This document shows positions 3,414 through 40,063 of a stretch of 42,338 bases of DNA, in pieces. Origin of the DNA: an uncultured Gammaproteobacteria bacterium (GTDB lineage Bacteria; Patescibacteriota; Microgenomatia; Levybacterales; UBA12049); assembly GCA_964608945.1 (NCBI GenBank), contig CAZSQB010000003.1, forward strand, positions 1 to 42,338, read 5' to 3'. A program made the position numbers and the translations under genes. The notes beneath the pieces were generated by a model. That model searched no databases, was not told the origin of the DNA, and was given only the letters and a program-made list of their open reading frames with translations. Numbering within the stretch: the stretch's first letter is position 1; each line of letters starts with the position of its first letter.

Positions 3414-3419
3414 CTCGCT

Positions 3420-4241: not shown

Positions 4242-4244
4242 CCT

Positions 4245-8869: not shown

Positions 8870-8890
8870 ATATTAGTTGAAAGATGATGG

Positions 8891-8975: not shown

Positions 8976-9021
8976 TTTTATACCTTAAACTGTCCCTAAG
9001 CTTCGTGTTATAATTTGATCT

Positions 9022-21864: not shown

Positions 21865-21919
21865 GCTTCCTCTTGCAAAGCATATAGGTGATTCTTTACA
21901 ATAATTTGCGCTTGCCCAT

Positions 21920-22369
21920 ATGCCAAAATCCAAACTCCCCACAAAAAAATTTAAAAAAAAGGCAGTTATTGTCGGGTTGTCCAAAAAATCGCAATTCCCG
22001 AGCATTTTCCGAACAATTACCGAACTCCCAGGATTTTCCTTCCTGCCAGTGCTTAATCGGTGGGCAGTCGTTGGCTTTGTGTCTGGCATACTGCTCATGG
22101 GGATTATTATCACAGGCGTGAGCCTGTGGCAAAATAATGAGGCGTTAGCAAAGGTAAAGCAAGAACGAGCAAGGTATGTACAAGAAGTCGCATTTTGGAA
22201 GAGGGTAGTTGATCAGTATGACGGGTATCGGGATGGGTATTTTAAGCTTGCGCTTTTGACCTATCAACTTGGAGAAAAGACCCAGGCGCGATCATATCTG
22301 CAAAAAGCAATGGAGCTTGATCCGAATTTCCAAGAGGGAAGAGCGTTTGCGCAAAAATTGGGGAGCTAG
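21920..22369 (+). CDS. Single-TM protein with a C-terminal TPR
   Basis: TM segment WAVVGFVSGILLMGIIITGVSLW; YRDGYFKLALLTYQLGEKTQARSYLQKAMELDPN (TPR). Confidence 0.8.
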   Translation: MPKSKLPTKKFKKKAVIVGLSKKSQFPSIFRTITELPGFSFLPVLNRWAVVGFVSGILLMGIIITGVSLWQNNEALAKVKQERARYVQEVAFWKRVVDQYDGYRDGYFKLALLTYQLGEKTQARSYLQKAMELDPNFQEGRAFAQKLGS

Positions 22370-22371
22370 CG

Positions 22372-23106
22372 TTATTTTCCCTCTTTTTTCTCATCAATTG
22401 CTTTTTCTTCTTTCTCACCCTTTTCGCCTTTTTCACCCTCAGCCTTTTCTTCTCCGCCTTCTTCTTTCACCTCGCCCTTTTCACCCTCAGCCGCGGCTTC
22501 GCCTTCAGCGCCTTCCGCAGCCTCTTCAGGTGCTGGCTCTTCAGGCTCTTCTTGTACTGGTTCGTCAATCTTAACGATGATTTGTGCGGGATCGGTTAAG
22601 ATAGCGACGTCTGGATCGGTCTTGAGATCCTCAACTGAAATTTGGTCGCCGATATTTGCCAAATTTGTTACGTCAACGGTTATGTTTTCAGGCAATTTGT
22701 CTGGAAGCGCTTCGACTTCGACCTCTGAGACTTGCTGGAGTAAAATGCCAATCTTGTCGAGTACTGCTTTTGCTTCGCCTGTAATCTCAACTGGAACCAT
22801 GGCTTTTACTTTTTCTTTGAGGTTGACTTGGTAAAAATCAGCGTGAAGCGGCATGTGGGAGGGGTACTGAAGCTGTAAGTTCTTAACTAAGACCGGGCGC
22901 GTCTCGCCGTTGACTTGTAAATCAATAAGACCAGTCTCTCCGACTTCTTTAAATACAGTTTGGAATTCCTTAAGGTTGACCTGAATTGCGAGCGAGCTGA
23001 GGTCTTTACCGTAGACATTGGCTGGTAACAAGCCTTCTCTACGAAGCTTTTTGACTTTTTTGCCGACTACTTGTCGAGCATCTGCTTTCAAAACAGCGTG
23101 TTTCAT
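22372..23106 (-). CDS. rplY: 50S ribosomal protein L25/Ctc with an acidic tail
   Basis: GKKVKKLRREGLLPANVYG, PLHADFYQV, EVEALPDKLPENITVDV. Confidence 0.95.
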   Translation of the reverse strand: MKHAVLKADARQVVGKKVKKLRREGLLPANVYGKDLSSLAIQVNLKEFQTVFKEVGETGLIDLQVNGETRPVLVKNLQLQYPSHMPLHADFYQVNLKEKVKAMVPVEITGEAKAVLDKIGILLQQVSEVEVEALPDKLPENITVDVTNLANIGDQISVEDLKTDPDVAILTDPAQIIVKIDEPVQEEPEEPAPEEAAEGAEGEAAAEGEKGEVKEEGGEEKAEGEKGEKGEKEEKAIDEKKEGK

Positions 23107-23136
23107 ACGGAGTATTATACCATAGATACAAAGGAA

Positions 23137-23248
23137 ATTGTTTTATTGTTGCATTGTTTCATTGTTACTCTCTCCCTTTGGGAGAGAGCGAGAGTGAGGG
23201 AACAATTTAGCAATCTAGCAATCTAGCAATGTAACAATGTAACAATGG
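23137..23248. repeat. Composite element copy 2: (ATTGTTNN)x4 + CTCTCTCCC..GGGAGAGAG..GAGTGAGGG core + (A[A/G]CAATNN)x6
   Basis: Same architecture as 16203-16300; lies between divergent rplY and ruvC and abuts the ruvC TATAAT. Confidence 0.85.
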
Positions 23249-23260
23249 TATAATTTCGCT

Positions 23261-23767
23261 ATGCGTATTCTTGGCATTGATCCGGGAATTGGACGGACGG
23301 GGTGGGGAGTGGTAGAAGTTCAAAAATCAACCCTTCGACGCCGCTCAGGGCAAGAGCTAAAGGCGCAAAGCTATGGATGCGTTGAGACATTCTTAAAAGA
23401 CTCCCTAGAGCAACGATTATTTCAATTATACAAAGAGGTTAACGAAGTTATAAAAGAACATAAACCTGATGCATTGGCGATTGAGGAGTTGTTTTTTAAT
23501 ACCAACGCCAAGACCGCACTTGTTGTTGGGCAGGCAAGGGGAGTTGTATTGCTGGCAGCGGCTCAAAAAGGTTTGTCGGTTGCTGTCTATACGCCGCTTC
23601 AGGTAAAAATTGCAGTGACTGGGTATGGGAGAGCAGAGAAGAAACAAGTTGAGAGGATGGTTATGACACTTCTCGCTCTTACAAAAAAACCAAAATATGA
23701 CGATACCTCAGACGCGCTGGCAGTCGCGTTAACCCACGCCTATTCACGAAAGTATCCAACGGTCTAG
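23261..23767 (+). CDS. ruvC: Holliday junction resolvase RuvC with an in-frame repeat insertion
   Basis: MRILGIDPG, LAIEELFF, GQARGV, YTPLQVKIAVTGYGRAEKKQV, DDTSDALAVALTH. Confidence 0.97.
   Translation: MRILGIDPGIGRTGWGVVEVQKSTLRRRSGQELKAQSYGCVETFLKDSLEQRLFQLYKEVNEVIKEHKPDALAIEELFFNTNAKTALVVGQARGVVLLAAAQKGLSVAVYTPLQVKIAVTGYGRAEKKQVERMVMTLLALTKKPKYDDTSDALAVALTHAYSRKYPTV
23331..23354. repeat. 24-bp REP-like insert CCCTTCGACGCCGCTCAGGGCAAG in ruvC
   Basis: Reverse-complement relative of the 2629-2672 element; translated TLRRRSGQE. Confidence 0.8.
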
Positions 23768-23836
23768 GCAATACATGCGCCGCTCCAAAATGCTCATTCC
23801 CTTTGTGTGGTTAATAAGGGGTCCTTTTGTATAGAC

Positions 23837-23865
23837 TTGACCAAAAGAGAATAGGGCAGTAAAAT
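23837..23865 (+). promoter_or_regulatory. Sigma70-type promoter of the DUF1848 gene
   Basis: TTGACC-17 bp-TAAAAT, ATG 9 nt downstream. Confidence 0.65.
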
Positions 23866-23874
23866 GCCGCTGGC

Positions 23875-24780
23875 ATGTCTCTCGAAGCACGAGCAATTCC
23901 AACCGGACAGCTTCTTTTACCAAGTACCGACCTGACACCACGACCTGTGGTTGTTTCTGCTTCTCGAAGAACAGAAATGGTAGGACTACGGCCGAATTTA
24001 CTTGTAGAGAGATTGCAGCGTTTTCCACAGGAGATTCACTCAGTAGTTCTTTGGACAAAAGACCCAACGAATATATATGAAAATAAAGAATTGAGAGAGG
24101 AATTAGCAAAGCACAACCTCTTGGTTCATTTTACGCTTACAGGAATGGCAGGAACGCGGATTGAGCCGACAGTACCTGATGCCGAAACACTTCTTGCCCG
24201 CATGCCGCAGTTATTAGATTTTCTCGGTGATCCGCGGCGACTACGGTGGCGTTTTGACCCAATTGTTACTCTTAAAAAGGAAGATGGAGAATATTGGTCA
24301 AGCGTAGAATATTTTCCAAAATTAGCACAAGCAATGGCAAAATTTGGTATTAATAATTGTTATTTTTCTTTCTGTCAAATATATCCCAAATTTGCAAAAC
24401 GACATTTAGCTGAAGCAGGAATTTACTTAGTTACCCCATCGCGAGATGAGCAGCGAGTTGTTGTTGGGGAAATGAAGAAGATAGCAGATCGGTTAGGAAT
24501 CGCGTTGTATTCATGTGCGCAGCCATTGCTAGAAAATATACCTGGCATTACGCCAGCAAAATGCATCGACGCAGAGTTATTGACTGAACTACATCCGCAA
24601 AAACTGCCCGCTGATCCGGATCGTGATGCGACACAGGAAAAATATAGGCCAGCTTGCTATTGTACTGAGTCGAAAGATATTGGGAGTTATCTAGCATGCG
24701 GTCACGGATGTGTTTATTGCTATGCTGAAGCAGCAGTCCCTATCCCTACAAAGCTTATCCAAAAACCCATGCCAGAATAA
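23875..24780 (+). CDS. DUF1848 family protein (C-terminal CxxxCxxC Fe-S motif, radical-SAM/SPL-related)
   Basis: SASRRT, VLWTKDP, HFTLTG, IEPTVP, WRFDPI, KCID, CYCTESKDIGSYLACGHGCVYCYA. Confidence 0.88.
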   Translation: MSLEARAIPTGQLLLPSTDLTPRPVVVSASRRTEMVGLRPNLLVERLQRFPQEIHSVVLWTKDPTNIYENKELREELAKHNLLVHFTLTGMAGTRIEPTVPDAETLLARMPQLLDFLGDPRRLRWRFDPIVTLKKEDGEYWSSVEYFPKLAQAMAKFGINNCYFSFCQIYPKFAKRHLAEAGIYLVTPSRDEQRVVVGEMKKIADRLGIALYSCAQPLLENIPGITPAKCIDAELLTELHPQKLPADPDRDATQEKYRPACYCTESKDIGSYLACGHGCVYCYAEAAVPIPTKLIQKPMPE

Positions 24781-24785
24781 AGAAT

Positions 24786-24814
24786 TTGCTATTATAGGAT
24801 GCTTATAGTACAAT
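24786..24814 (+). promoter_or_regulatory. Sigma70-type promoter of the repeat-protein/helicase pair
   Basis: TTGCTA-17 bp-TACAAT, ATG 9 nt downstream. Confidence 0.6.
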
Positions 24815-24823
24815 TTTGCTCTT

Positions 24824-26551
24824 ATGGCAGGAGATATTGAGACAGCAAGAGAATCCATTGCTCCAACCGGTTGGGAAGTGGTGAGTCCAGAGGTCTTTGA
24901 TTCACTTCCTCCAGGGCCTCCAAGTCGTCAAAGAACACCTAAAGCAACAAACGGAGCTTCCAGCCATCTGACGGTAACGATGGCTCCTGTGCCTATATCA
25001 ACCGCTATCTATACGGACTTGCATTCTCCCGCCCAGCGATCAACATCAAGACGACAGGGACCATATAGCTATTGGACTCCAGAGCGAACAGAGGAAGAGT
25101 ATGGAAACTTCTATTTGATTACTGGAGATGCATCAGCTACCGCCCTAGTGGAATCGAACAGAGGAGACCTCCACCATGCAGTGAATAGATACCCAGGGGG
25201 ATTCAGAGGTTTAAAAAGAAAATTGAATGTCCCTCACGCTGATAGAAGATATAGAGATGAAAAAGCAAAAAGAAGAAGAGCTGTTGTAGAAAGCGAAGCC
25301 CAAGTAGATACTGACCTGAGAACTGTCCTTTCAGAAATAACCCGCAATAGCCGTGGTGATGTGCAATGGACGTTACCGGGAAACACAAATGTAGAAAATC
25401 TTTATTTAGGCATCAGTAACATAAGAGGTCTTTTTCTTGAACAATTTCCCACATTTGATGAGCTTTTCCCACGTGGAGAAGACGGAGTAATATTAGAGCA
25501 TAAAAGAGAGGAAGCAAAACGCTTTGTCCTTGATCGCTTAGGAAGCAGTAAAGCGATTAATTCATTATGGGGATCTGCCACTAACGCGAAAGTAGCTCCT
25601 TATTTTGGGGGCTCATATATAATCGTTATTAAAGAGTCTTTTAGGACATGGGGACTTGAGTTTGGTATTGAAGACAGTCCTAAGCTGAGAGATTCAAATA
25701 ATGCCCCTATTGTAGATGAAGATGGTAGAGTATTGGTTCCTCTAGATTTTGCTGGACGGTACCTTTGGGCCACATTAGAAGACAAGCCTGAACAACTAAA
25801 GAAAGCAATACAAATAGCAGCAAAAAGACAAGTGGAAAATGGAGTACTACTAACTTCAAATAGTTTGCAACAGGCAGGCGAACATAGCTTAATTAACGTC
25901 ATAACCAAACGATATCCAGGTGGACTTTCTGCCTTGAAGCGAGAGTTAGGTATAAGCACAGACAAGCTTCCAAGAGGTTATTGGAATGCAGACTTAGTTA
26001 GAGAAGAGGCGGTAAGATTTCTGCAACGAGAAGGCGAGTTAACGAGGGCATTATTAATAGAAAGAGGAGAAGGGCGTCTTGGAGATGCTATTAATAGGCA
26101 TTACCCAGGTGCCTTGACTCAGTTAAAAGTAGATATTGGCTCGCAGAGCGTTAAAAAACCAAATGGTTATTGGGTGCCCGAAAGAGTTCGGCAAGAAGCA
26201 TTAAAATTTCTTCAAGAAACCGGATATTTGTCTCATGTTTCGCTTGATAAATTTGGAAGATGGGATCTTATTGGTGGAATTAACGGCTATCCGGGCGGAA
26301 TGACCGCATTAAAAGAAGAACTAGGAATTCCTCATCAGCCGAGAAAACGAGAAGTGGAAAAAAGCAATAAGGAGCAAAATGGAAAACCTGTAACAGATTT
26401 TGAAGTTCAAGCAGTCTTTGTTACGCTTTCTCCCGAAGATAAACATGAAATTCTGGCATCTTTTAGATTGTATATTAGAGAAAACCCTCATACAACGATG
26501 TCAGTTATGGATTTTATTTATAACTCGTTGCAGAGGGAAGGGAAAATATGA
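24824..26551 (+). CDS. Hypothetical protein with four ~60-aa helical repeats (YW...YPGG...LK.ELG)
   Basis: Repeats seen directly; the stop overlaps the next start (ATGA 26548-26551). Confidence 0.85.
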   Translation: MAGDIETARESIAPTGWEVVSPEVFDSLPPGPPSRQRTPKATNGASSHLTVTMAPVPISTAIYTDLHSPAQRSTSRRQGPYSYWTPERTEEEYGNFYLITGDASATALVESNRGDLHHAVNRYPGGFRGLKRKLNVPHADRRYRDEKAKRRRAVVESEAQVDTDLRTVLSEITRNSRGDVQWTLPGNTNVENLYLGISNIRGLFLEQFPTFDELFPRGEDGVILEHKREEAKRFVLDRLGSSKAINSLWGSATNAKVAPYFGGSYIIVIKESFRTWGLEFGIEDSPKLRDSNNAPIVDEDGRVLVPLDFAGRYLWATLEDKPEQLKKAIQIAAKRQVENGVLLTSNSLQQAGEHSLINVITKRYPGGLSALKRELGISTDKLPRGYWNADLVREEAVRFLQREGELTRALLIERGEGRLGDAINRHYPGALTQLKVDIGSQSVKKPNGYWVPERVRQEALKFLQETGYLSHVSLDKFGRWDLIGGINGYPGGMTALKEELGIPHQPRKREVEKSNKEQNGKPVTDFEVQAVFVTLSPEDKHEILASFRLYIRENPHTTMSVMDFIYNSLQREGKI

Positions 26552-29500
26552 GGGGTGGAGAAGTAGTATCTGGGGTTAGTCTAATAGATTCTTCCGGAGC
26601 ATTGGGTTTTCCTGCAGACAGACCGCCATTGGGGGCGATCAAAGGAGATCCTTTTGAAATTGACATCCTTCAACATGAAGTTGGGATCGGTAAAGTGCCT
26701 ATTGCACTTGCTGCGCCGAGGTTTCGGGAACTACTAGCACAGAATCCTGAATGGGAAGCGCTTTTTGAACATTTTGGCGATTCGTCAAAGCATCTCACTC
26801 GTCTTTTGGTTGAATTATATCCTGATCGGTTTCGCGCGTACGGCCATTTGTATCGTATGACAAAAGCACTCAATCTTGGTGAAGGGCCACATCACCCGAG
26901 AGTGATATTGTTTCCTAAACCATCAGCTATGCCTGAATGCGCTAGTCCGCGGCAGGAAATTAATATTCAAGATATTATTACTGATTTCGAGACCGAAAAA
27001 CACTTTACTGGCTTTGTGCATAATCGTGAATCAATGCTTGCGAGATTGAGAGAGCTTATAGATAGTGAGTCTAATTCAGTTTTAAGAGCGTCTTATCAGC
27101 AGGCGCTCGACCACTTTCTGGATATTATTCATCTTTCGATTCCCGCTTTCAGAGAAGAATACCAGCCACGTCCGTATCAAGCAGAAGCGATATTGAAAGG
27201 ATTACATCGGGGAATTGAGGAAACAAGCATGGCAGATTTCGATGGTCCACGATCTGGAAAAACACTTGTAGCGCTTGGCCGTTTTGAACATCTGCGTCGG
27301 TTAGGTGTTGCAAAAAAAGCAGTGATTATTGCTCCTGCTGACGTCAAAGGGCAATGGCAGGAGAGAATGAATGAGTATTATATCGATTTGCCAAAGAGCG
27401 TCTTTATTGAAGGGAATGCAAAAGAAAAGCAATTGGCACTCGCTGCATTGCCTGACACAGCGTTTACTATCGCGAGCTATGATCTGCTTGTCAGCAGAAA
27501 AAACAGAAGCGGGCAAGCACAAGAAACTGATGAAAAAGTAAGTCGTTGGGTTGAAGAGTTAGGTTCTCTCGGAGCAGACTGTTTGATTGTAGATGAAGGA
27601 CACTATGCGAAAAATGTCCAGTTAGGTACTAAGCGAGCTGAGGCAATTTTGCGGCTTGCTAAAGCTTCAGGTTTTAAACACTTAATCTGGCTTACTGCGA
27701 CTCCAGCTGATCGGGTGAAGGATATGAACATTGTTGCCCACCTTTTAGACCCAGAGACATACCCGACGGTAGTGAGTTTTTCTACAATGCATCAGGATAA
27801 CCCGCGACTTGGCCATAATGACCTTATGACAAAGGTTGTTCGTCGAACAGCAAAAGAAACGTTAGGCTTACCAGATGACGAAGAGAATATTGTGCCGATA
27901 CAGTTGACGCCGACTCAGCAGGCAGTATACGAACATATCCACCAACAGGAAGACTCGCATCAATTTAGAAAGCTAACGAATCTTCGTGCCGCTCTTTTAC
28001 AGCCTGGACTCGTTGGGAGCGATACGCTCCCATTTGATAAGCAAACAGCCTACGCACTTATTACTGGTGCATATCTGAGGTGGCGACAGCAAGTAGCGCG
28101 CAATCCTGATTTATCATTTGATTCGGATTTTTTAGTAACCAACGGCTATAAGGAGTTATACTTGTCTGCACTTTTTAATCTTAACGGTGGCATAACAGAA
28201 TTTATACAGGAACTGCACAGTCCTCTTATCGCTGAAGCATGGCATGGTGAGACAGTTCCTGCAAAATTTGTGAAAATAAAAGAACTTATTGAGGAGTGTA
28301 TTAAAAAAGGAGAAAAAGTTGTTGTATTTTCGAGTATCTTTGCAAAGGGAGTAACAGATGATGTTGGCAGAGAGCATTTTCAATCACTGCTGCAGTACTT
28401 GCAACAAGAATTTGGTGAGGAAACTATCTTAAAGATTGATGGTAGTAATCATACAGAGGCTCGTGTTGTTCTTCCTGATGGAAGCAGGGTAAGCGAACGG
28501 GAGCTTATTCGGCGACAATGGAAAGATGATCCAACGAAACGAATTCTTTTGACGACTATTGGATCATCATCGCTTGGGATAGATCTCTCTATTCAGGATC
28601 CAACGATACCATCTGTGTCGGTCATTTTTGAAGGGTTGCCGTACTCATATAGCGCGTATGAGCAATCAGTTGCACGCGTCCATTGGTATGGGCAAACAGC
28701 ACCAACCCGAGTGTACATTGTTGAAGCTGAGAACGCCCTTGATGAGGAAATCTATCAGCTCCTGCGAGAGAAAAAACAATTGATTGATATGCTTCTTGAC
28801 GCAGTGCCATTGACAGATGAAGAAATAAAATTCCTTGAAGAAAGCCCTGATAAAGTTTCTAGTATTCTTTCTAGAATGATCCATTCCCCTCGGCAAAATA
28901 TGGCGTGGATGTTTCAATACATGCAGGGTAAACCGGCCGATGTAAATAGACAGTTCCTTGCAGGAAAATTTACCAAGTCACAAACATGTGAGGAATACTT
29001 AGCAGAATGGTATGACGAATTGTATGAGCACGGCTATCCTAAATATGTTGCAGATGTAGTAAAAGCGGTCATTGAAGGATTAGAAAGCAGATATGGAGTT
29101 GCTGAGCGTCTTGCTGATTTGGCATGTGGTACGCTCGGTGTTGCCCGAGCACTGGGGAGGCCTGTTATTAGTCTAGATATCAATGAATCAATGCTTCGGG
29201 AAGGGAAGAAAAAATTAGTAGATCAAGATATTGCCATACCTGATGAATGGCTAGTAGCTGGCAGCATTACGGAGTTACCGAAAGATGTCTTTCCTGATGA
29301 AAGCATTGATATTGGAGTTTGTTCGCTTGCGCTTGATTGCACTGCACCAGGTGAAGAACGAGAACAGGCAGTCAAAGAAATGCGTCGCAGTCTTAAGCCG
29401 GGAGGGCATCTTATCTTGACCCTTCCGGAAGGAGTGTTGACTAGCGAAGACTTTGCGCAGTTTCGTCAGGAGTTAGAGGCAATAGGATTTCAAGACAACC

Positions 29501-29916
29501 TAGGTTTATCAGGGTACGTCAGAGGGCACACTGGTAATGCAACCGTCTTTCATACATGGCTTTTCGTATTACAGAAAATAGACAGTCAGGAGTATTCTGT
29601 AGATTCACAGAAATTACTCTTTGCCTTTGAAAAACAGCAGGGAGGCAAGAAACGGAGTAAGGAAAGACAATTGCAGAAGCGCGCGCGAGATCGAGCACAA
29701 AAAATGCCTACAGTTGAGAGGCTTATTGTTTGTGTTCCTGAAGCAAGACAGACCTCCAACCATTGGGTGGAGAAAGGAGAACTGCATGAGCTTGTTGGAA
29801 ATTCGTTGCGAAGAGAGCTAATGGATTTATCAGAGGATGAGCTGGCTACCTATGGGTTTGAAAGAGATATCTACGTTCGCGGCGGGAAGCAAGGGATTCG
29901 GTTGACACGACAATAA
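26548..29916 (+). CDS. SNF2-like SF2 helicase/ATPase fused to a C-terminal class I SAM-dependent methyltransferase
   Basis: PRPYQ, GPRSGKT, IIAP, ASYD, IVDEGH, LTATP, KVVVFS, SSLGIDL, QSVARVHWYGQ; then LADLACGTLG, SLDINESML, DIGVCSLALD, RRSLKPGGHLIL. Confidence 0.88.
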   Translation: MRGGEVVSGVSLIDSSGALGFPADRPPLGAIKGDPFEIDILQHEVGIGKVPIALAAPRFRELLAQNPEWEALFEHFGDSSKHLTRLLVELYPDRFRAYGHLYRMTKALNLGEGPHHPRVILFPKPSAMPECASPRQEINIQDIITDFETEKHFTGFVHNRESMLARLRELIDSESNSVLRASYQQALDHFLDIIHLSIPAFREEYQPRPYQAEAILKGLHRGIEETSMADFDGPRSGKTLVALGRFEHLRRLGVAKKAVIIAPADVKGQWQERMNEYYIDLPKSVFIEGNAKEKQLALAALPDTAFTIASYDLLVSRKNRSGQAQETDEKVSRWVEELGSLGADCLIVDEGHYAKNVQLGTKRAEAILRLAKASGFKHLIWLTATPADRVKDMNIVAHLLDPETYPTVVSFSTMHQDNPRLGHNDLMTKVVRRTAKETLGLPDDEENIVPIQLTPTQQAVYEHIHQQEDSHQFRKLTNLRAALLQPGLVGSDTLPFDKQTAYALITGAYLRWRQQVARNPDLSFDSDFLVTNGYKELYLSALFNLNGGITEFIQELHSPLIAEAWHGETVPAKFVKIKELIEECIKKGEKVVVFSSIFAKGVTDDVGREHFQSLLQYLQQEFGEETILKIDGSNHTEARVVLPDGSRVSERELIRRQWKDDPTKRILLTTIGSSSLGIDLSIQDPTIPSVSVIFEGLPYSYSAYEQSVARVHWYGQTAPTRVYIVEAENALDEEIYQLLREKKQLIDMLLDAVPLTDEEIKFLEESPDKVSSILSRMIHSPRQNMAWMFQYMQGKPADVNRQFLAGKFTKSQTCEEYLAEWYDELYEHGYPKYVADVVKAVIEGLESRYGVAERLADLACGTLGVARALGRPVISLDINESMLREGKKKLVDQDIAIPDEWLVAGSITELPKDVFPDESIDIGVCSLALDCTAPGEEREQAVKEMRRSLKPGGHLILTLPEGVLTSEDFAQFRQELEAIGFQDNLGLSGYVRGHTGNATVFHTWLFVLQKIDSQEYSVDSQKLLFAFEKQQGGKKRSKERQLQKRARDRAQKMPTVERLIVCVPEARQTSNHWVEKGELHELVGNSLRRELMDLSEDELATYGFERDIYVRGGKQGIRLTRQ

Positions 29917-29930
29917 TAATATGCTATAAG
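29902..29930 (+). promoter_or_regulatory. Sigma70-type promoter overlapping the helicase gene end
   Basis: TTGACA-17 bp-TATAAG with an extended TG. Confidence 0.65.
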
Positions 29931-29938
29931 CTAAGTCA

Positions 29939-30379
29939 TTGCCTATGGGAACTGAACCAAGAGATTTACCATCACCAAAATTTAGTTTCGAGGCGGATGC
30001 TACGGAGGTAGCAGATCAATTGATAAACGCGCGATTTCAAGTAGGCGATCAAACTGCAACTATTGTTGAGACAGAATGGTTTACAAGAGATGAAAACGAT
30101 CGAGGACAGTACCGAATTCTCACGAAATTGCCACCAGCTCGGCTGGTAGGCATTCCATACATCGCTTCAACGTTAGCTTTGGTAACTACAGGGAATGGAA
30201 GCGCAGTTAAGCTAAATGGGCTAGAGGTTACAATGCCTGATGGGGCAATAAAAAAGGTAGAGGGGTCTGGTAACGTTGGCAAGTTCTTCGGTCTTAACAA
30301 GGGCGATGTGCGAGAAATATCCATTCAAGACCCTTATTCAAAAGTATTTAGAGTAGAAACACCACACACCTCACAATAG
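29939..30379 (+). CDS. Divergent 3-methyladenine DNA glycosylase (MPG/AAG)-like protein (start TTG 29939 or ATG 29945)
   Basis: FEADATEVADQLI, ATIVETEWF (cf. GRIVETEAY), LPPARL..IPY, GSAVKLNGLE (cf. GxAVLIRAxE), EGSGNVGKFFGL (cf. GPGKLxxALGI). Confidence 0.6.
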   Translation: MPMGTEPRDLPSPKFSFEADATEVADQLINARFQVGDQTATIVETEWFTRDENDRGQYRILTKLPPARLVGIPYIASTLALVTTGNGSAVKLNGLEVTMPDGAIKKVEGSGNVGKFFGLNKGDVREISIQDPYSKVFRVETPHTSQ

Positions 30380-30434
30380 TTTTTTATTACCCTGATTCCA
30401 CATATTCTTTCTGTGTTATAATTTTCCCACGCTT

Positions 30435-31013
30435 ATGATCGGGATGTTGCGTGGGATAGTGGGACTGCGAGATATAAACTTCATTATTGTTGATGTGCAG
30501 GGAGTTGGCTACAAAGTGCTTCTTTCGCAAAAAGCCCTCAGTCAAATCCAATCCACCGGCGAGTCGATACAGCTTTTTACGTACACCTACGTTCGCGATG
30601 ACGCGATTGATTTGTATGGCTTCACGAACATGGAGGACTTGAAGTTGTTTGAGATGTTAATTAGTGTTTCAGGTGTTGGGTGTAAATCTGCTTTGGGCAT
30701 TTTCTCAATTGGGAGTAGGGGTAAGATCATCGATGCAATTCTGAAAAATGACGTCGCGTTCTTTATGAGCGCTCCGCGTCTGGGCAAGAAAAATGCCCAA
30801 AAAATCATCATAGAGCTTAAGAGCAAGCTCGGAGATGCTACAGATTTTGATTTAGGAACAGAGGAAGGAAAGGACGCTGATGAGGTGATCCAAGCGCTCA
30901 AAGGCTTTGGATTTACCTATCGTGAAGCACAAGACGCTTTGCGTCAAAGCAATGGCAAAGGCGAGACAACAGCTGAAAGAATCAGACAAGCATTAAAATA
31001 TCTTGGGAAGTAG
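30435..31013 (+). CDS. ruvA: Holliday junction branch migration protein RuvA
   Basis: [52 protein letters not shown]. Confidence 0.97.
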
Positions 31014-31047
31014 GTTACCTAAGGCACCTAAGTTACTTAAAGAACTT

Positions 31048-32091
31048 ATGGACAAAACGAAACAATTACTAGAAGAACATATCGAGCAGGAAGCGCCAGA
31101 AGAGGAAGTGCTATTTACTTCTTTAAGGGCAAAAACGCTTGCTGAATTTTTAGGCCAGGAAGATATTAAGAAGTCGTTAAAAATCGCAACAGAGGCGGCC
31201 AAGCAACGAAGCGAAGCGCTTGAGCATATTCTCCTTTATGGACCGCCGGGTCTTGGCAAGACCACGCTTTCTCACATTATTGCTCAGGAAATGGGAAGTA
31301 ATATTCGCGTTACCTCGGGTCCTGCTATCGAGCGAGCAGGTGATGTAGCATCAATCCTGACCAATCTTGAGAAAGGCGACATCCTTTTTATCGACGAAAT
31401 TCACCGACTTAATACAGTAGTTGAGGAGACATTGTATCCTGCGATGGAAGATTATGCCCTGGATATTATTATCGGCAAAGGGCCATCAGCCAGAACAGTG
31501 CGACTTGATCTGCCGCAGTTTACAATTGTTGGTGCAACAACCAGGATTGGACTTTTAACAGGACCGCTTCGCGACCGCTTTGGCGTTGTGCATCGGTTGA
31601 ATTTCTACAGCCCTGAGGAGTTGTCGCATATTATTACCGCTGCTGCAAAAAAGCTGAAAGTAAAAATAGACAAAGAGAGTGTAAAAGAGATTGCTATTCG
31701 CGCTCGAGGAACACCACGTATTGGCTTAAAGCTTCTCAAACGTGCACGGGATTATGCACAAGTAAAGGGAGAGGGACATATTACAAAAGAGCTGACACAG
31801 GAAGCGCTGAAGATGCTTGGTGTTGACCGGCTTGGGCTTGATCCTTTGGATATTAGGTTTTTATACGCAATTATTGAAAAACATAGCGGGGGGCCTGTGG
31901 GAATTGAGACAATTGCATCAACTATTGCCGAGGATATTGGTACTCTGGAAGAGGTAACAGAGCCGTTTCTCCTGCAGATCGGTTTTCTCAAACGAACACC
32001 CAGAGGTCGCGTCGCGACAAGGAGGGCATATGAGCATATTGGCTACCCATATCCCCACGAGGAAAAATCCCGGCAGCAGAAGCTAATCTAG
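31048..32091 (+). CDS. ruvB: Holliday junction branch migration helicase RuvB
   Basis: [60 protein letters not shown]; ATG 31048 preferred over TTG 31003. Confidence 0.98.
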
Positions 32092-32129
32092 CGCATCTCT
32101 CCCCTTAACCTGACTTCCTCACGATACTG

Positions 32130-32163
32130 GCCCTGTACCAGAACGGTACGGGGCGGGTTTTCT
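32130..32163. terminator. Hairpin GCCCTGTACC-AGAAC-GGTACGGGGC between convergent ruvB and ATPase genes (terminator and/or REP-like insert)
   Basis: 10-bp stem with one G:T pair, followed by a short T-run. Confidence 0.5.
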
Positions 32164-32186
32164 TACCATTTACCCCTGAGCCAAAC

Positions 32187-34550
32187 CTAGTACACCAAGT
32201 GAAATATTTCCTGAAAAAATGGCGTTGTTGTGATAATTATTTGCAGTAAAAGTGTCACAAACACTGTAATAATGAGCATTTTGTTTATTCTGAAGATTGA
32301 CTGTCCCCTTATGAAAAACGCAAAGACCATGTGATAAAACACAAGAAGATTGAAGATGATAGTACGAGCGTGGGGCTCTGAGTGGGTATGGAGTAATTGC
32401 TGAAAGATAAGGAGAAGAATACTCGCTGCGCCTAAGCCAACGGTTACGATCAGAAGCACCCGGTGTGTAGTCAAAATAGGAATTTTGGGGTTACGGGGAG
32501 TGTGTTTGAGTATGTCAGGATTTTTGTTATCGCTCGCCAGTGCAAGAGCAGGTAGTCCATCTGTGACAATATTTATCCAAAGAATCTGCGTTGGCAAAAG
32601 CACAGAAGGCATGCCAAAAAGCGCTGCAAAAAAGACGAGGGAGAGCTCTGAGAGATTTCCTGAGAGAAGATACGTGATAGCTTTCACAATATTACTATAA
32701 ACAGTTCGTCCTTCCTCAACCGCTTTTACCAATGTTGCAAAGTTATCATCAGCTATGACAATGTCGCTTGCTTCTTTTGCAACATCCGTTCCCGACTCTC
32801 CCATAGCGATCCCAACGTCTGCTTTTTTCAAGGCGAGGGCGTCGTTTACTCCGTCACCTGTTACGCCGACGACATACCCCAGCTTTTTAAGAAGAGTGGC
32901 AAGTCGGAGTTTGTCATGCGGCTCTGTGCGGGCAAATACTCGAGTTTTCAGGACAAGAGACGAAAGCTCGTCATCTGACATACGCTTTAATTCTTCCCCT
33001 GTGACAACATCTTCATCTTTTTGTATAAGCCCTATTTCTTTGGCGATTGAGAGCGCAGTATATTCATTGTCTCCGGTAACCATAATGGTTTTTATTCCGG
33101 CAGCTCTTGCTTCGTGAATTGCGTGTTTCACCTCAGGCCGGGGCGGATCATAGATACCGATGAGGCCGAGTATATGAAGATCGTTCTCAAGCTCTGCACG
33201 ATCTTTTTTGTGTGCATCTGTATCTTCTTTAAATGCTAAAGCAATGACACGAAGTCCTTCTTTTGCATACTCTTGATAAAGAGACTCAAGTGCCTGTCGT
33301 TCTTGTTGTGGAGCAGTAGATCGAGCAAGGATCGCCTCAGGCGCGCCACGTGAGAAAACATATTTTTTTCCGTCTTTTTCCCAGACTGTGGTGATCATGC
33401 GGGTGGCAGTATCGAAGACATGCTCGTCAATAATCTTGCCTAATTTTACCTGTTCTTCCATACCCGGTTCGGCTTGTTTGGCATAGAGGAGCAGTGCTCC
33501 GTCAGTCTTGTCACCGACAATGTCAAAATGTTTTCCTTCCGCCTGCTGTATAAGAGATGCTGTATTGCCAAGCATGCAACCCAAAAGAAGATTGGGCAGG
33601 TCGTCTTTTTTGACAACCCAGACTTTTTTTACCTGCATTTTGTTTTGGGTTAAGGTCCCGGTTTTATCAACGAGTATTACTTGGACAGCGCCAAGCGTTT
33701 CAACAGCCGGCATTCTCCGAATAAGAGTCTTGCGTTTCGCCATACGGTTGGTGCCTATCGCAAGCGCAATTGTGATAACTGCGGGGAGGCCTTCCGGGAT
33801 AGCCGCAACGGCGATACTCGTGGCAAGGAGCAAAAACGGTAAAATATCTTTTCCCTGAGCGTAGCCAATTGGAAGCAAAAGGAGTGCTATGGCTATAGCA
33901 AAAAGCGAAATTGCTTTACCCAATGTGTCAAGCTGTTTTTGTAACGGAGCTTTATCTTCCTCAATGGTTGCAAGAGATTCTGCGATCTGCCCGAACCTAG
34001 TCTGCATCCCAATCTGGGTTACACGCATTTTGCCTTTTCCTTTAACAATCAGCGTGCCCAAGAAAGCTTCATTGTTTTCCAGTTTGATAACTGGTAAAGA
34101 TTCGCCGGTGAGGAGGGATTCATCGATTTCCAGATGGCGGGTCGTAAGAAGTGTCCCGTCCGCCGGGATCCGGTCACCTTCTCTGAGGACGATGATATCG
34201 TCAGGAACAAGCTCTTGTGTTGGTATTTCGGTTTCTTTACCCTCTCGTATTACTCGAGTTGTTGTGGTTGTATAGGTTTTTAGCTTTTCAAGTGACTTTT
34301 CTGCTCTATATTCCTGAAAGAAGCCAAAGATACCATTGATAAAGACGATGGCAAGAATAAAGTAGCCGTCAATCGGATCATGGACCAGAAAAGAGATCGT
34401 CGCTGCAAGAAGGAGTATGCCATTAATAAATATGGGAAATTGGGAGAGAAAAATCGATACGGCAGAAGTAGTTGATTTGGTTACGATTTCATTCTTACCA
34501 AATTGTTGAGATTTTTCCGCGACTTGCGTTAATGATAAACCGTTTTCCAT
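32187..34550 (-). CDS. Cation-transporting P-type ATPase (type II, Ca2+-like)
   Basis: LLTGES, AIPEGLP, DKTGTLT, MVTGDN, TGDGVNDA, QILWINIVTDGLPA; ATG 34550 follows TGgTAGAAT. Confidence 0.95.
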   Translation of the reverse strand: MENGLSLTQVAEKSQQFGKNEIVTKSTTSAVSIFLSQFPIFINGILLLAATISFLVHDPIDGYFILAIVFINGIFGFFQEYRAEKSLEKLKTYTTTTTRVIREGKETEIPTQELVPDDIIVLREGDRIPADGTLLTTRHLEIDESLLTGESLPVIKLENNEAFLGTLIVKGKGKMRVTQIGMQTRFGQIAESLATIEEDKAPLQKQLDTLGKAISLFAIAIALLLLPIGYAQGKDILPFLLLATSIAVAAIPEGLPAVITIALAIGTNRMAKRKTLIRRMPAVETLGAVQVILVDKTGTLTQNKMQVKKVWVVKKDDLPNLLLGCMLGNTASLIQQAEGKHFDIVGDKTDGALLLYAKQAEPGMEEQVKLGKIIDEHVFDTATRMITTVWEKDGKKYVFSRGAPEAILARSTAPQQERQALESLYQEYAKEGLRVIALAFKEDTDAHKKDRAELENDLHILGLIGIYDPPRPEVKHAIHEARAAGIKTIMVTGDNEYTALSIAKEIGLIQKDEDVVTGEELKRMSDDELSSLVLKTRVFARTEPHDKLRLATLLKKLGYVVGVTGDGVNDALALKKADVGIAMGESGTDVAKEASDIVIADDNFATLVKAVEEGRTVYSNIVKAITYLLSGNLSELSLVFFAALFGMPSVLLPTQILWINIVTDGLPALALASDNKNPDILKHTPRNPKIPILTTHRVLLIVTVGLGAASILLLIFQQLLHTHSEPHARTIIFNLLVFYHMVFAFFIRGQSIFRINKMLIITVFVTLLLQIIITTTPFFQEIFHLVY

Positions 34551-38822: not shown

Positions 38823-39128
38823 ATGAAAATAGGCATGATCACAAAACCTAATATGAAAGGGCAAATCGTTATTCCAAAAGAAATCAGGGATACGTTGAAA
38901 ATTGATCAAAATTCCTGCCTCAATATAACTCTGGCAGGTAGTGGTATTTACGTCCAGCCTGTAGATGAAGTCTATACAAAAACAGAGACAAAAAGTGCTT
39001 TTCTTGCAATGTTAGAAAAAACTAAAGGCTCTTTAGCGGAGGAGAATTGGACAGCGTGGGAGGAAAGTGAAAAAAGATACAGAAAAGGAGAGATTGCAGC
39101 AGTCAAAAAAAATAAAAAGGCGTGGTAG
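38823..39128 (+). CDS. AbrB/MazE-fold antitoxin (VapB-like)
   Basis: KGQIVIPKEIRDTLKI swapped-hairpin motif; overlaps the PIN gene. Confidence 0.85.
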   Translation: MKIGMITKPNMKGQIVIPKEIRDTLKIDQNSCLNITLAGSGIYVQPVDEVYTKTETKSAFLAMLEKTKGSLAEENWTAWEESEKRYRKGEIAAVKKNKKAW

Positions 39129-39514
39129 TCATTGACACCAATATTATTATCGATCATGTCAGAAAAACGCGCGAAGATTCATACCTCATGCGTTTGGTAA
39201 AGCAGCTCCATAAAGACGAAGTAGGGATCTCGCTTATAACCTTACAAGAATTATATCAGGGAACAAGTACGAGAAGCCTTCATGTGGTAGAAGTCTTAAG
39301 CATTATCCTTTCTCCACTTACTCTTCTACCATATACCTACGAGATAGCAAAGCTCGCTGGTGCAATTACGCGCGATAGTCAACAGCCAGTAACCTTTGTC
39401 GATGCAGCCATCGCTGCGACGGCTATCAGCAATAGCTGTACCCTTGCGACGCTCAATCCAAAAGATTTTGCTGGAATTACTAATTTGGAGTTGGTGAAAA
39501 TAAAAGAAGCTTAA
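39122..39514 (+). CDS. vapC: PIN-domain ribonuclease toxin
   Basis: VIDTNIII, TLQELYQG, VDAAIAATA, TLNPKDF. Confidence 0.9.
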   Translation: MVVIDTNIIIDHVRKTREDSYLMRLVKQLHKDEVGISLITLQELYQGTSTRSLHVVEVLSIILSPLTLLPYTYEIAKLAGAITRDSQQPVTFVDAAIAATAISNSCTLATLNPKDFAGITNLELVKIKEA

Positions 39515-39517
39515 ATC

Positions 39518-39718
39518 TCAAGCTTCCGTCTCCTTCAAACTCGATAAGTACGCCATCTTAATCTGCTCCTTGGTTAAAAATGGGTATTCTTTTAGTATCT
39601 CTTCAATCTCCATACCAGAGGCCAAAAGTTCCAATATTGACTCAACTGACATACGAGTTCCAGCAATAATCGGTTTTCCACCTAGTATTTTTGGGTCTTG
39701 GGTAATGAGCTTTTTCAT
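39518..39718 (-). CDS. DUF433 family protein
   Basis: ITQDPKILGGKPIIAGTRMSVESILELLASGMEIEEILKEYPFLTKEQI; ATG 39718 lies 6 nt after TGcTATTAT. Confidence 0.9.
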   Translation of the reverse strand: MKKLITQDPKILGGKPIIAGTRMSVESILELLASGMEIEEILKEYPFLTKEQIKMAYLSSLKETEA

Positions 39719-39793
39719 ATCAGCATAATAGCATAGAGAGAGGAGTAGGTAATCAATTAGCACGGAACCGGTGAATGCTTTATAATATAAGCT

Positions 39794-40063
39794 ATGAATG
39801 AAACTGAAGCATTGGAAAAGCGTATTGCTCAAATAGAACAGAGGAATGAGAGGGTTGAGGCAGATAAAGCATGGGAAACAAGTTGGTCAAGACGCATGCT
39901 GTTGGTTATTTTTACTTATCTTGCAATTAGCCTGTATCTCAACGCGATTCGTATTGAGAGGCCTTGGTTAAACGCAATCGTTCCTGCAATCGGGTTTTTA
40001 CTCTCAACTTTGACACTTCCTATTTTTAAGGAGTTATGGAAGAGGTACTTTTATAGAAAGTAA
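39794..40063 (+). CDS. Small two-TM membrane protein of unknown function
   Basis: RNERVEADKAWETSWSRR, two hydrophobic segments, TATAAT 7 nt upstream. Confidence 0.8.
   Translation: MNETEALEKRIAQIEQRNERVEADKAWETSWSRRMLLVIFTYLAISLYLNAIRIERPWLNAIVPAIGFLLSTLTLPIFKELWKRYFYRK

Follow-up and report, generated by a model that had tools for sequence, protein, structure and literature searches.

A candidate defence cassette between ruvC and ruvA couples an SNF2 helicase-methyltransferase fusion with a miniature alkylpurine-glycosylase fold

The window, a stretch of 42,338 nucleotides from the genome of an ultra-small, uncultivated groundwater bacterium (G000), carries four genes between ruvC and ruvA that form one block of 6.6 kb (approximately positions 23817 to 30411). 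On balance, we favour the view that this block is a horizontally acquired cassette lodged in a recurrent slot, wherein a core module is accompanied by a DUF1848 protein, that it most likely protects its host from phages or other mobile DNA, and that its position among the ruvABC genes is incidental. The core, which comprises one or more repeat proteins, an SNF2 helicase-methyltransferase fusion (Hel-MT) and a miniature AAG-like protein (mini-AAG), recurs in ultra-small bacteria. DISARM, BREX and related systems, in which an SNF2 motor is paired with a methyltransferase, represent a major and poorly understood class of bacterial immunity. To this pairing the cassette adds a miniature alkylpurine-glycosylase fold and, in this genome, DUF1848, neither of which has been reported as its partner, and the combination of genes hints at steps that write, read and erase an unusual mark on DNA bases. 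The defence repertoire of such hosts is largely unknown, and the cassette is small enough to be expressed and tested in a laboratory host.

Genes were assigned from a list of open reading frames (ORFs) followed by Pfam and NCBIfam profile searches (Table 1). All four lie on the forward strand, in the shared orientation that a preliminary description of this DNA had reported from the letters and ORFs. The gaps from ruvC through ruvA are, in order, 107, 43, -4, 22 and 55 bp according to the ORF coordinates, and the overlap of the middle two genes by ATGA, also described earlier, can be read directly at 26548-26551, where the stop of the repeat gene meets the start of Hel-MT. Likewise, the absence of an integrase and of att repeats holds, in that no integrase domain, flanking direct repeat or tRNA was found. 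The three separate promoters proposed earlier do not stand out from background, since there are 11 promoter-like sites versus 14.3 +/- 3.5 in shuffled sequence; one such site precedes the DUF1848 gene and another precedes the repeat gene. A domain search of the remainder of the window reveals housekeeping genes and no defence island around the cassette.

Table 1. Features of the cassette and its flanks, in coordinates of the window
Feature	Coordinates	Strand	Remarks
ruvC	23261..23767	+	left flank, outside cassette; PF02075 171 bits, NF000711 200 bits
Conserved 48-bp intergenic element	23769..23816	+	left boundary of insertion; overlaps terminator-like hairpin 23799-23821
DUF1848 protein P0004, 301 aa	23875..24780	+	PF08902 162.5 bits; probably an Fe-S, radical-SAM-like enzyme and optional accessory
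Repeat protein P0001, 575 aa	24824..26551	+	four or more helical repeats of ~62 aa each; C-terminal tail motif
Hel-MT P0003, 1122 aa	26548..29916	+	SNF2 helicase/class-I methyltransferase fusion (SNF2 + Methyltransf_11)
Mini-AAG P0002, 146 aa	29939..30379	+	TTG start; 144 aa from ATG at 29945
Right boundary	30412..30434	+	TGTGTTATAAT, extended -10-like sequence and ruvA leader; kept in G001 and G002
ruvA	30435..31013	+	right flank, outside cassette; ruvA/ruvB: TIGR00084 173 bits, NF000868 492 bits
ruvB	31003..32091	+	right flank, outside cassette

The four genes constitute a single insertion-deletion difference of 6.6 kb from relatives, bounded by positions 23817 and 30411. In sequence alignments, likeness to two genomes of the same genus (G001 and G002) ends at 23816 and restarts at 30412. 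The 48-bp element at the left boundary is 96% identical to a site located directly upstream of ruvA in G002, where it is followed by some 17 bp and then the ruvA leader, and 85% identical to an internal site in G001, whereas the flanking genes are only 71-77% identical to those of the two genomes. This element is present as a single copy in all three searched genomes of the genus, and outside the genus a weak match in G036 (E 0.003) is the only one. The cassette is absent at the same two boundaries in one genome of the genus and in one co-occurring population of the source samples. A contig from run X3 joins 23805 to 30412, thereby skipping 6606 bases, and has a depth of 18.5 versus 38.8 for the cassette-bearing form; this joint is seen at 90% likeness with a side of 34 letters, and thus comes from a relative that is not necessarily part of the same population. 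Contigs of 2811 and 2900 nt in runs X1 and X2, which derive from a co-occurring relative, match from 30412 onwards only, and a 6716-nt contig in run X1 covers 23779-30494 at a depth equal to that of the flanks. The single indel with sharp boundaries supports the earlier reading of these genes as a unit rather than a chance pile-up.

Hel-MT carries an N-terminal domain (residues 1-200), an SNF2 ATPase (approximately 205-752), a class-I SAM methyltransferase (approximately 818-987) and a C-terminal domain, of which the first and the last are of unknown kind. The Pfam model SNF2-rel_dom (PF00176) scores 46.4 bits against a cut-off of 24.9, and Methyltransf_11 scores 53 bits. With its Walker A, DExx and motif VI, the protein is, as judged by sequence, an ATPase of the SNF2 family. 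The best PDB profile match for this part is the Sulfolobus SNF2 core (1Z63, E 6e-23), with further matches to ISWI and INO80 and also to RapA (E ~1e-5). Residues invariant among eight Hel-MT homologues include G237-K238-T239 of Walker A, D349-E350 and Q706/R710 in the ATPase, and D857, G861 and D877 in the methyltransferase. The latter domain matches generic class-I models only (Methyltransf_11/25/31, UbiE and, weakly, Methyltransf_8), and its nearest solved structures are generic or ring-nitrogen methyltransferases (1WZN, GNMT, MitM, cap G-N7). Assignment as an N6A/N4C or C5 methyltransferase was rejected because no model matches, motif IV being judged by eye; N6_Mtase, MethyltransfD12, N6_N4_Mtase and DNA_methylase are absent from the 10 Pfam families that Hel-MT matches at E<=0.01. 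Neither a nuclease domain nor an N6-adenine methyltransferase motif is detected with Pfam or PDB profiles. Because the domain is not of the amino-methyltransferase type, a mark on a ring nitrogen or another unusual mark is plausible.

The initial AAG signal of P0002 is an NCBIfam match of 38 residues (E 3.4e-4), and its score against PF02245 (Pur_DNA_glyco) is 11.1 bits, below the gathering threshold of 27. A profile built from 43 relatives nevertheless has human AAG as all of its top five PDB matches (1BNK, 3QI5, 1F4R, 1EWN and 7XFH; E 3e-5 to 7e-5). A Foldseek search with the AlphaFold model (pLDDT 93.6) likewise ranks human AAG structures in the first eight places (prob 1.00, TMq 0.53-0.60). 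By both profile and predicted fold, P0002 is therefore a miniature AAG/MPG protein, in agreement with the MPG/AAG-like label it was given earlier. It has the fold of human AAG and bacterial Mpg (PF02245) and keeps the IVETE motif with its catalytic Glu, wherein E46 in IVETEWF aligns with Glu125 of the human enzyme (IVETEAY). However, it differs in length (some 146 versus 200 amino acids) and lacks, in the profile alignment, the loop that connects the Glu motif of human AAG to its core. Across the 43 family members, the residue at the Glu position is E in 23, Q in 12, T in 3, K in 3, G in 1 and D in 1. Unlike AAG/Mpg, the family thus often swaps the catalytic residue, which is present in only 23 of the 43 and replaced by Q in 12, making excision doubtful as a general activity of the family. 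A family search yields 141 matches at E<=1e-3, and among the 41 top matches 14 give a Pfam match and four reach 27 bits. Strong matches to the family profile (E<1e-30) occur among 401 genomes of the phylum only in G000 and G178, both adjoining Hel-MT, and in the loci read a mini-AAG, in contrast to AAG/Mpg, is always encoded beside Hel-MT.

The repeat protein has the repeat consensus W..E.V..EA..F...G.L....L...G...L..AI...YPGG...LK..LG and no match in Pfam, even at E<=10. Its identification as HNH_repeat (PF18780), for which there are only Atlas language-model leads of 0.78-0.82, was rejected on the same Pfam result. Repeat proteins of one locus have a tail in common, and a related tail is carried by P0001, P0060 and a 131-aa ORF beside the Hel-MT of G178; the tail motif is short, with one invariant column in five sequences. 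We propose that P0001 may be an adaptor for DNA binding or targeting.

There are four other Hel-MT loci with available DNA, and a mini-AAG gene adjoins Hel-MT in three of these while P0001-like repeat proteins are found in two. In G808 (L011), two repeat proteins with homology to P0001 (5e-31) are located upstream of Hel-MT and a 162-aa mini-AAG. In the G819 locus (L225), Hel-MT and mini-AAG are preceded by four genes, and three of these match P0001 (2e-66, 1e-60 and 3e-33). In G178 (L177), Hel-MT is accompanied by a 205-aa mini-AAG (Pfam MPG 6.6e-5), and in G341 (L178) it adjoins an IS1595 transposase and has only a weak 90-aa match and no recognisable partners. Hel-MT identity among the genomes with the recurring core is only 25-30%. 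None of 40 close relatives was found to have Hel-MT, and at the full-family level it occurs in two of the 400 further genomes sampled from the phylum. The neighbourhood comparison suggested in the preliminary description thus places repeat protein, Hel-MT and mini-AAG together in distant genomes; the original set of four is borne out for these three genes, and obligatory membership of DUF1848 is not supported.

P0004 matches PF08902 with 162.5 bits (cut-off 30.5), wherein residues 45-284 correspond to profile positions 39-262 of 262, and it matches the PADLOC model RTasDUF1848 at E 3.5e-45. A C-terminal cluster of Cys residues, including a CX3CX2C motif, is formed by C261, C263, C275, C279 and C282; four of these are invariant in 61 DUF1848 sequences and C275 is nearly so. 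These features suggest that P0004 is probably an Fe-S, radical-SAM-like enzyme. The Pfam Radical_SAM model gives 17.6 bits (threshold 29.5) across 13 residues, and a PDB sequence search gives no match at E<=0.5. Of the likeness to spore photoproduct lyase put forward in the preliminary description, what shows up here is the CX3CX2C motif and a 'DNA repair photolyase' label given to DUF1848 by some sources, which is an annotation only. The 21 nearest relatives of P0004 cluster tightly, at 59-71% identity. Within the phylum sample DUF1848 is not found in any of the 400 other genomes, and the class sample has it on a single high-GC contig of 2.5 kb; it is also missing from the four other Hel-MT loci, and genome-wide searches of G178, G341 and G808 likewise find none. 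Two of the closest relatives nevertheless point to Hel-MT: P0064 (70% identical to P0004) lies on a single Logan contig of 14097 nt, and the single contig with the Hel-MT homologue P0006 is also 14097 nt; similarly, P0078 (65% identical) and the Hel-MT homologue P0010 are each found on a single contig of 9521 nt. By a rough estimate, 0.012 such coincidences of equal length are expected, with P(>=2) ~7e-5. Judged from the equal nucleotide sizes alone, DUF1848 very probably accompanies Hel-MT on two further contigs. Since it is missing from the four other loci, its membership rests on the window and these two pairs of contigs, and it looks like an optional addition to the core module.

Close adjacency of ruvC and ruvA, another point to be checked in relatives, is found in most of them. 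Among the 28 relatives that have both genes on one contig, 18 have a gap of less than 100 bp, but in the other 10 the gap is 0.2-4.5 kb. In G001 and G002 its cargo is a MazE-PIN toxin-antitoxin pair plus unrelated genes. Because the gap carries other cargo in relatives, the sequence comparison makes it look like a recurrent insertion hotspot rather than a functional link. One could still imagine, as was proposed earlier, that the cassette makes DNA intermediates resolved by RuvABC, which would explain its position and would fit possible read-through transcription from ruvC into ruvA. We regard this as very improbable, given that the other Hel-MT loci have unrelated surroundings (rseP/proS-tig, rpoD/ribD, the IS1595 transposase and G819) with no ruv gene among the neighbours examined (for G819, cassette profiles only), that the same slot has unrelated cargo in G001, and that ruvA retains a conserved extended -10 sequence of its own. 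The hotspot is also relevant to an earlier caveat, according to which the four genes could have arrived separately, and so would do no joint work. The absence of DUF1848 from the other loci and the promoter-like sites before its gene and the repeat gene are compatible with such a history. However, three of the four genes occur together in genomes that differ as widely in Hel-MT as noted above, and the ATGA overlap, the single clean indel and the two exact size coincidences of DUF1848 and Hel-MT contigs also argue against separate arrival, which we consider quite improbable. For the three-gene core the caveat is largely refuted.

Perhaps the module instead serves these ultra-small symbionts outside of defence, as a repair, epigenetic or DNA-processing device that, for example, marks or processes imported DNA. 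Hel-MT would then be a repair-coupled SNF2 enzyme and mini-AAG a true repair glycosylase. The cassette resides among housekeeping genes here, in G178 and in G808, and the single MPG-type profile match in G000 implies that P0002 may be the only AAG-type protein of its genome. Against this stand the very patchy distribution of Hel-MT, the presence/absence polymorphism of the cassette between co-occurring populations, the transposase beside Hel-MT in G341, the toxin-antitoxin and other cargo in the same slot of sister genomes, and the loss of the catalytic Glu in about half of the mini-AAG family, which together make such a non-defence role unlikely. Alternatively, the methyltransferase could act on RNA, on a protein or on small molecules, such that Hel-MT is a RapA-like remodeller of RNA polymerase or nucleoprotein and mini-AAG is structural. 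The generic class-I models and the solved small-molecule or cap methyltransferases matched by the domain, the RapA match, and the frequent loss of the catalytic Glu are in line with this, but the best SNF2 matches are dsDNA translocases, the constant partner of Hel-MT has a DNA-glycosylase fold, and DUF1848 bears its photolyase annotation. We therefore give little credence to a target other than DNA.

If the cassette is a defence module, as we favour, the best guess is that its translocase is coupled to methylation of bases and that mini-AAG reads or excises the resulting mark. The repeat protein would bind DNA and dock on Hel-MT via its C-terminal tail, Hel-MT would track along DNA as a dsDNA translocase while methylating bases, and mini-AAG would flip out the methylated purine to read or excise it. 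DUF1848 might work with the methyltransferase chemistry to reverse or elaborate the mark, as in its usual pairings with methyltransferase folds. A more specific and rather unlikely version is that the adaptor-guided SNF2 motor methylates a purine ring nitrogen on invading DNA, at which mini-AAG creates destructive abasic sites, while the radical-SAM-like DUF1848 protein acts as an eraser by which the cell's own DNA is protected or reset, and mini-AAG proteins without Glu serve as readers only. If true, this would be a hitherto undescribed principle of defence, wherein the host writes a lesion; to our knowledge, known defence systems recognise the lack of a modification.

As anticipated in the preliminary description, PADLOC gives no full match to the cassette, and the four-gene set is described in no PADLOC model nor in the literature searched. 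DISARM (DrmD SNF2 helicase, DrmMI/MII methyltransferase, DrmA, DrmB and DrmC) likewise has an SNF2-type ATPase and a methyltransferase in one module, and DrmD models are the best matches in defence libraries for the helicase of Hel-MT (PADLOC 42.3 bits, NCBIfam 40.9 bits). Identity with DrmD was rejected, as the NCBIfam scores of 40.9 and 34.8 fall far short of the respective cut-offs (950 and 610), and there are no DrmA, DrmB or DrmC neighbours. In contrast to DISARM, the methyltransferase of the cassette shares one chain with the helicase and belongs to neither the N6-adenine nor the C5 type, and mini-AAG, the repeat protein and DUF1848 are partners unknown in that system. Zorya, BREX, Hma, MADS and Dpd were also rejected, as there are only partial-domain matches of 16-44 bits to ZorD, BrxH, HmaA, mad2 and DpdE, and Pfam and PADLOC searches find no ZorAB, PglX/PglZ/BrxC, HmaB/C, mad1, mad3-8 or other DpdA-K components in the cassette. 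Type ISP restriction enzymes (LlaGI) and the DarB-type methylase-helicase proteins of phage P1 are single-chain helicase-methyltransferases, and thus resemble Hel-MT in that one polypeptide combines a methyltransferase with a helicase that translocates. Hel-MT differs from these in that its ATPase is of the SNF2 type, no nuclease domain is detected, and the adaptor and glycosylase-fold subunits are separate.

DUF1848 is an uncharacterised, probable Fe-S protein that is found repeatedly beside methyltransferases, and the window ties it to the SNF2-methyltransferase/mini-AAG module, which offers a route to its function. Mestre et al. (2022, PMC9226505) present UG25 as a methyltransferase-RT fusion associated with DUF1848, which there lies beside a protein with a SAM-methyltransferase domain, as in the cassette. 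Identity with UG25/DRT was rejected, since no ORF of the cassette or its flanks has an RVT domain. Compared with UG25 and with pairs of DUF1848 and a methyltransferase-like protein, the cassette has its methyltransferase fused to SNF2 and has no reverse transcriptase. Such pairs occur on two IMG/VR contigs (L207 and L208), in which a methyltransferase-like gene for some 280 amino acids, whose product has no similarity to the Hel-MT methyltransferase by BLASTP, overlaps the start of the DUF1848 gene.

There are four genes between ruvC and ruvA in this ultra-small bacterium, whose genome of 1.14 Mb (102 contigs, completeness 93%) includes the window as contig C3. The cassette that they form is real and mobile, and it has no published description. 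The preliminary description was right to report four genes in this gap; its interpretation, a module acting on base modification, is supported in part, and we infer the mechanism. The ATGA overlap that it placed between the second and third genes is present in the sequence, and the remaining intergenic gaps, from ruvC through the four genes to ruvA, are 107, 43, 22 and 55 bp. As it also stated, there is no integrase and no flanking att-like direct repeat. No tRNA genes are found anywhere in the window, and an Rfam search of 22000-32500 matched no families. The rest of the window is filled by housekeeping genes (dnaA, rnpA, yidC, glycolysis genes, valS and L25). The region 38823-39832 holds a MazE-PIN toxin-antitoxin pair (38823-39514) and, in the other orientation, a DUF433 gene.

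Genes of the cassette and its flanks in the window, and gene order at four other loci encoding the SNF2 helicase-methyltransferase fusion (Hel-MT)
Genome/locus	Feature	Position	Strand	Details
Window	ruvC	23261-23767		left flank of cassette
Window	P0004, DUF1848	23875-24780	+	Pfam 162.5 bits against a cut-off of 30.5; PADLOC RTasDUF1848 3.5e-45
Window	P0001, repeat protein, 575 aa	24824-26551	+	no Pfam match even at E<=10
Window	P0003, Hel-MT, 1122 aa	26548-29916	+	SNF2-related domain, ResIII, Methyltransf_11/25/31
Window	P0002, predicted miniature AAG (mini-AAG), 146 aa	29939-30379	+	
Window	ruvA	30435-31013		right flank of cassette
G808/L011	upstream part			RseP; repeat protein, 378 aa (5e-31 to P0001); repeat protein, 249 aa; then Hel-MT
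G808/L011	Hel-MT (30% identity) and beyond			mini-AAG; PaaX/Cas2-like; tRNA ligase; trigger factor
G819/L225	gene order			four upstream genes, three matching P0001 (2e-66, 1e-60, 3e-33); Hel-MT; mini-AAG (2.2e-13)
G178/L177	gene order			uvrB; dnaG; rpoD; two uncharacterised opposite-strand genes; Hel-MT; mini-AAG; RibD_C
G341/L178	gene order			IS1595 transposase; Hel-MT (1305 aa); uncharacterised 326-aa gene; weak mini-AAG-profile match

Both ruvC and ruvA were looked for in 40 relatives, none of which carries Hel-MT, and the two genes are located on one contig in 28. The adjacency of ruvC and ruvA assumed at the outset holds for 18 of these 28, wherein the gap is shorter than 100 bp, but the other 10 are interrupted by 0.2-4.5 kb. 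Two same-genus genomes exemplify the cargo: in G002, MazE and PIN are accompanied by an ORF of 79 aa and one gene resembling PEMT/ICMT, and in G001 they are followed by an ORF of 78 aa and by genes for two proteins, 318 and 885 aa long. The genes for the latter two overlap on the minus strand of contig C6 of G001 (L003, 2776-6344) and occupy the same slot as the cassette. Their products have no Pfam or PADLOC matches, and the pair may be another system of its own.

The 48 bp that follow the ruvC stop codon (23769-23816) exhibit 96% identity to the sequence immediately upstream of ruvA in G002 and 85% identity to a mid-insert site in G001, higher than the 71-77% of the flanking genes. Similarity to the relatives picks up again at 30412, with the conserved sequence TGTGTTATAAT in front of ruvA. 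The toxin-antitoxin genes of G001 and G002 are placed between ruvC and the 48-bp element, and the four cassette genes, like the two uncharacterised genes of G001, are placed between this element and the ruvA leader. This pattern of similarity therefore indicates two cargo slots in the gap. Terminator, regulatory site and recombination target are all possible roles for the element. A dispersed repeat was considered and rejected, because each of the three genus members searched holds a single copy; the one match beyond the genus is weak, in G036 (E 0.003). The four cassette genes amount to a single insertion-deletion difference at a hotspot, and the proposed tie to RuvABC is reduced to a link of position.

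The cassette is present in four groundwater DNA runs, all from one study, and three of them are possible sources of the window's DNA and therefore not independent of it. In these runs the depth of the cassette equals that of its flanks, and a contig of 6716 nt covers 23779-30494. A contig from run X3 links 23805 directly to 30412 (depth 18.5 versus 38.8), a joint detected at 90% likeness with 34 letters on one side, and contigs of 2811 and 2900 nt in runs X1 and X2 begin to match only at 30412. Together these contigs point to a co-occurring relative that lacks the block and has the same boundaries. The cassette-less joint belongs to a related organism; that it comes from the same population is not demonstrable.

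Recurrence of the gene set was assessed on the DNA of the four other Hel-MT loci. The expectation that all four genes co-occur holds for the mini-AAG gene, which adjoins Hel-MT at three of these loci, and in part for P0001-like repeat proteins (two loci), but not for DUF1848 (none of the four). The core of the cassette is thus three genes. The weak match in G341 is an ORF of 90 aa on the minus strand of its contig C4 (L178, 8257-8529; mini-AAG profile 6.3e-5, 16.8 bits), which immediately precedes the Hel-MT gene and is read in the opposite direction. It may be a mini-AAG remnant or a chance match.

There are 11 accepted homologues of Hel-MT (P0005-P0015) from a word-indexed search of 5.8 billion proteins: four at 48-51% identity, three at about 30% and four weaker. 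The best solved match of the ATPase part is the Sulfolobus SNF2 core 1Z63 (6e-23), followed by ISWI, INO80 and CHD1. Residues of Walker A, DExx and motif VI are invariant across eight homologues, as are D857, G861 and D877 of the methyltransferase part. By sequence, the ATPase is a true member of the SNF2 dsDNA translocases. For the methyltransferase part, all model matches are to generic class-I types; the closest solved structures are 1WZN, glycine N-methyltransferase, MitM and a cap guanine-N7 methyltransferase, and a Pfam search of Hel-MT gave no matches to models of DNA amino-methyltransferases or C5 enzymes. Ring-nitrogen methylation would be a guess from these weak structural neighbours. 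Conservation within the family extends to residues 1-200 and about 990-1122, for which nothing matched, and a search of the Atlas with the N-terminal 200 residues produced no useful leads. Scans of metagenome and viral contigs with the Hel-MT alignment recovered only generic SNF2 helicases, wherein the methyltransferase part was never matched, and thus no new loci. Similarly, in tblastn searches of plasmids (12 records) and phages (32 records) P0003 was matched through its SNF2 N-domain alone, with query coverage no higher than 28%.

The fourth gene had been labelled MPG/AAG-like on a thin basis, and this label is now backed by profile, PDB and Foldseek matches. A Candidatus Curtissbacteria MAG is a relative that carries a homologue, and P0061, the product of the gene 3' of Hel-MT on a Curtissbacteria contig, is homologous (BLASTP 2e-5) to P0060, a 205-aa protein encoded 3' of Hel-MT in G178 that has a Pfam Pur_DNA_glyco match (6.6e-5). 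A profile built from P0060, P0061 and P0002 was searched against 1.84 billion representatives and gave 141 matches at E<=1e-3, of which 66 reach E<=1e-10, among them relatives of P0002 at 37-45% identity. Pfam MPG matches occur in 14 of the 41 best of these (four above threshold), and no other recurrent family occurs among the same 41. Against the PDB, the top five matches of a 43-sequence profile are all human AAG. For the AlphaFold model of P0002 (pLDDT 93.6, pTM 0.84), the eight best Foldseek matches are all human AAG, and related C-terminal domains of formyltransferases come next. By profile and predicted fold, the product of gene 4 is a miniature AAG. An earlier reading of P0002 as an orphan, since the word-indexed search had matched only the protein itself, was overturned by the exhaustive profile search; with P0002 alone, a PDB sequence search yields no meaningful match (best E 0.72).

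The segment IVETEWF of P0002 aligns with IVETEAY of human AAG, and the Glu aligned to the catalytic Glu, which we take to be Glu125, is retained. The AAG mutant E125Q is inactive. Across 43 family members this column holds E in 23, Q in 12, T in three, K in three, G in one and D in one. Because the Glu is replaced in so many members, many of them are probably binders rather than enzymes. In a sample of 401 genomes of the phylum, profile matches below 1e-30 are confined to the genome of the window and G178. The other 56 matches range from 1e-12 to 1e-3, mostly in ORFs of 180-240 aa, and look like ordinary Mpg.

The repeat protein P0001 contains at least four copies of a unit of about 62 aa, each ending in YPGG...LK..LG. 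A language-model search of the Atlas gave weak leads (0.78-0.82) to clusters carrying HNH_repeat (PF18780); assignment to this family was rejected, as the Pfam model itself has no match. The repeat proteins of one locus have a common C-terminal tail. All four genes upstream of Hel-MT in G819 end in ISPDEANEQL..LLE, both repeat proteins of G808 end in LLN.YE.AL..R..SFREFL, and a related tail is carried by P0001, P0060 and a 131-aa ORF adjoining Hel-MT in G178. This sharing of a short motif is compatible with a docking mechanism that we infer, wherein exchangeable repeat adaptors would attach to Hel-MT through the shared tail.

The window places DUF1848 beside the Hel-MT module. In the phylum sample, no PF08902 match was found in any of the 400 genomes other than that of the window, G178 and G341 included, and G808 lacks it too. 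The class sample holds one DUF1848-bearing contig only, of 2.5 kb and high GC, in a genome without Hel-MT. This contig, C43 of G601 (L181), carries a truncated DUF1848 and was rejected as a true member, because the small genome is otherwise low in GC and the contig is thus probably a binning contaminant. The close relatives of P0004 number 21 and cluster tightly (59-71% identity), with all further matches at 44% or less, and a PDB sequence search with P0004 alone yielded no meaningful match (best E 0.52). One group member, P0064, is located on a single Logan contig of 14097 nt, the size also of the single contig with the Hel-MT homologue P0006 (49%); for P0078 and P0010 (30%) both contigs are 9521 nt. 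A rough kernel estimate puts the expected number of such coincidences in the 11 x 21 pairs at 0.012, and by their equal size the members of each pair probably reside on the same contig. With moderate confidence, we take DUF1848 to be a probable optional accessory in a subset of Hel-MT modules.

DUF1848 is also linked to methyltransferase domains independently of the window. One report describes UG25 reverse transcriptases as having an N-terminal methyltransferase and as associated with a DUF1848 cluster (PMC9226505). Full-length DUF1848 matches occur in 13 IMG/VR contigs, seven of them annotated. In two of these seven, a methyltransferase-like gene of about 280 aa overlaps the start of DUF1848; the two copies are 43% identical, have no similarity to the Hel-MT methyltransferase domain, and in one contig, L207, the pair adjoins a Type I HsdR. 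On L207 (IMG/VR, 2899-10295) the order is DUF2924, serine recombinase, methyltransferase-like gene, DUF1848, a 164-aa ORF and Type I HsdR (PADLOC REase_I 3e-229), wherein the DUF1848 pair shares an integrative element with a restriction enzyme. On L206 (IMG/VR, 5386-7030) the gene after DUF1848 has an S-adenosylmethionine-synthetase N-domain match (3.6e-9), which makes it another SAM-related neighbour, and ParB_N genes come next.

No full match in defence libraries had been anticipated, and PADLOC indeed yields only partial-domain matches to the cassette (DrmD, ZorD, BrxH, HmaA, DpdE and mad2; 16-44 bits) and none to the repeat and mini-AAG proteins. The NCBIfam equivalogs of DrmD, from DISARM, score 41 and 35 bits on Hel-MT against cut-offs of 950 and 610. 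The cassette contains no signature partners of DISARM, Zorya, BREX, Hma, MADS or Dpd, and the gene set is not described in the literature listings and abstracts searched.

Two further features are located upstream of the cassette. The valS ORF (700 aa, region 19762-22369) seems to lack its C-terminal part, since its match stops at about position 697 of valine-tRNA ligase models of 860-863 positions; the next ORF, of 149 aa, bears one TPR motif. Between the L25/ctc gene and ruvC (23100-23260) there are short tandem words, CAATCTAG and CAATGTAA, together with inverted repeats. In contigs of the four runs, depth in this region spikes to as much as 705, and at least five length variants occur at 23158-23224 (skips of 34-58 bases). 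It is a hypervariable, repeat-rich promoter region common to many co-occurring genomes.
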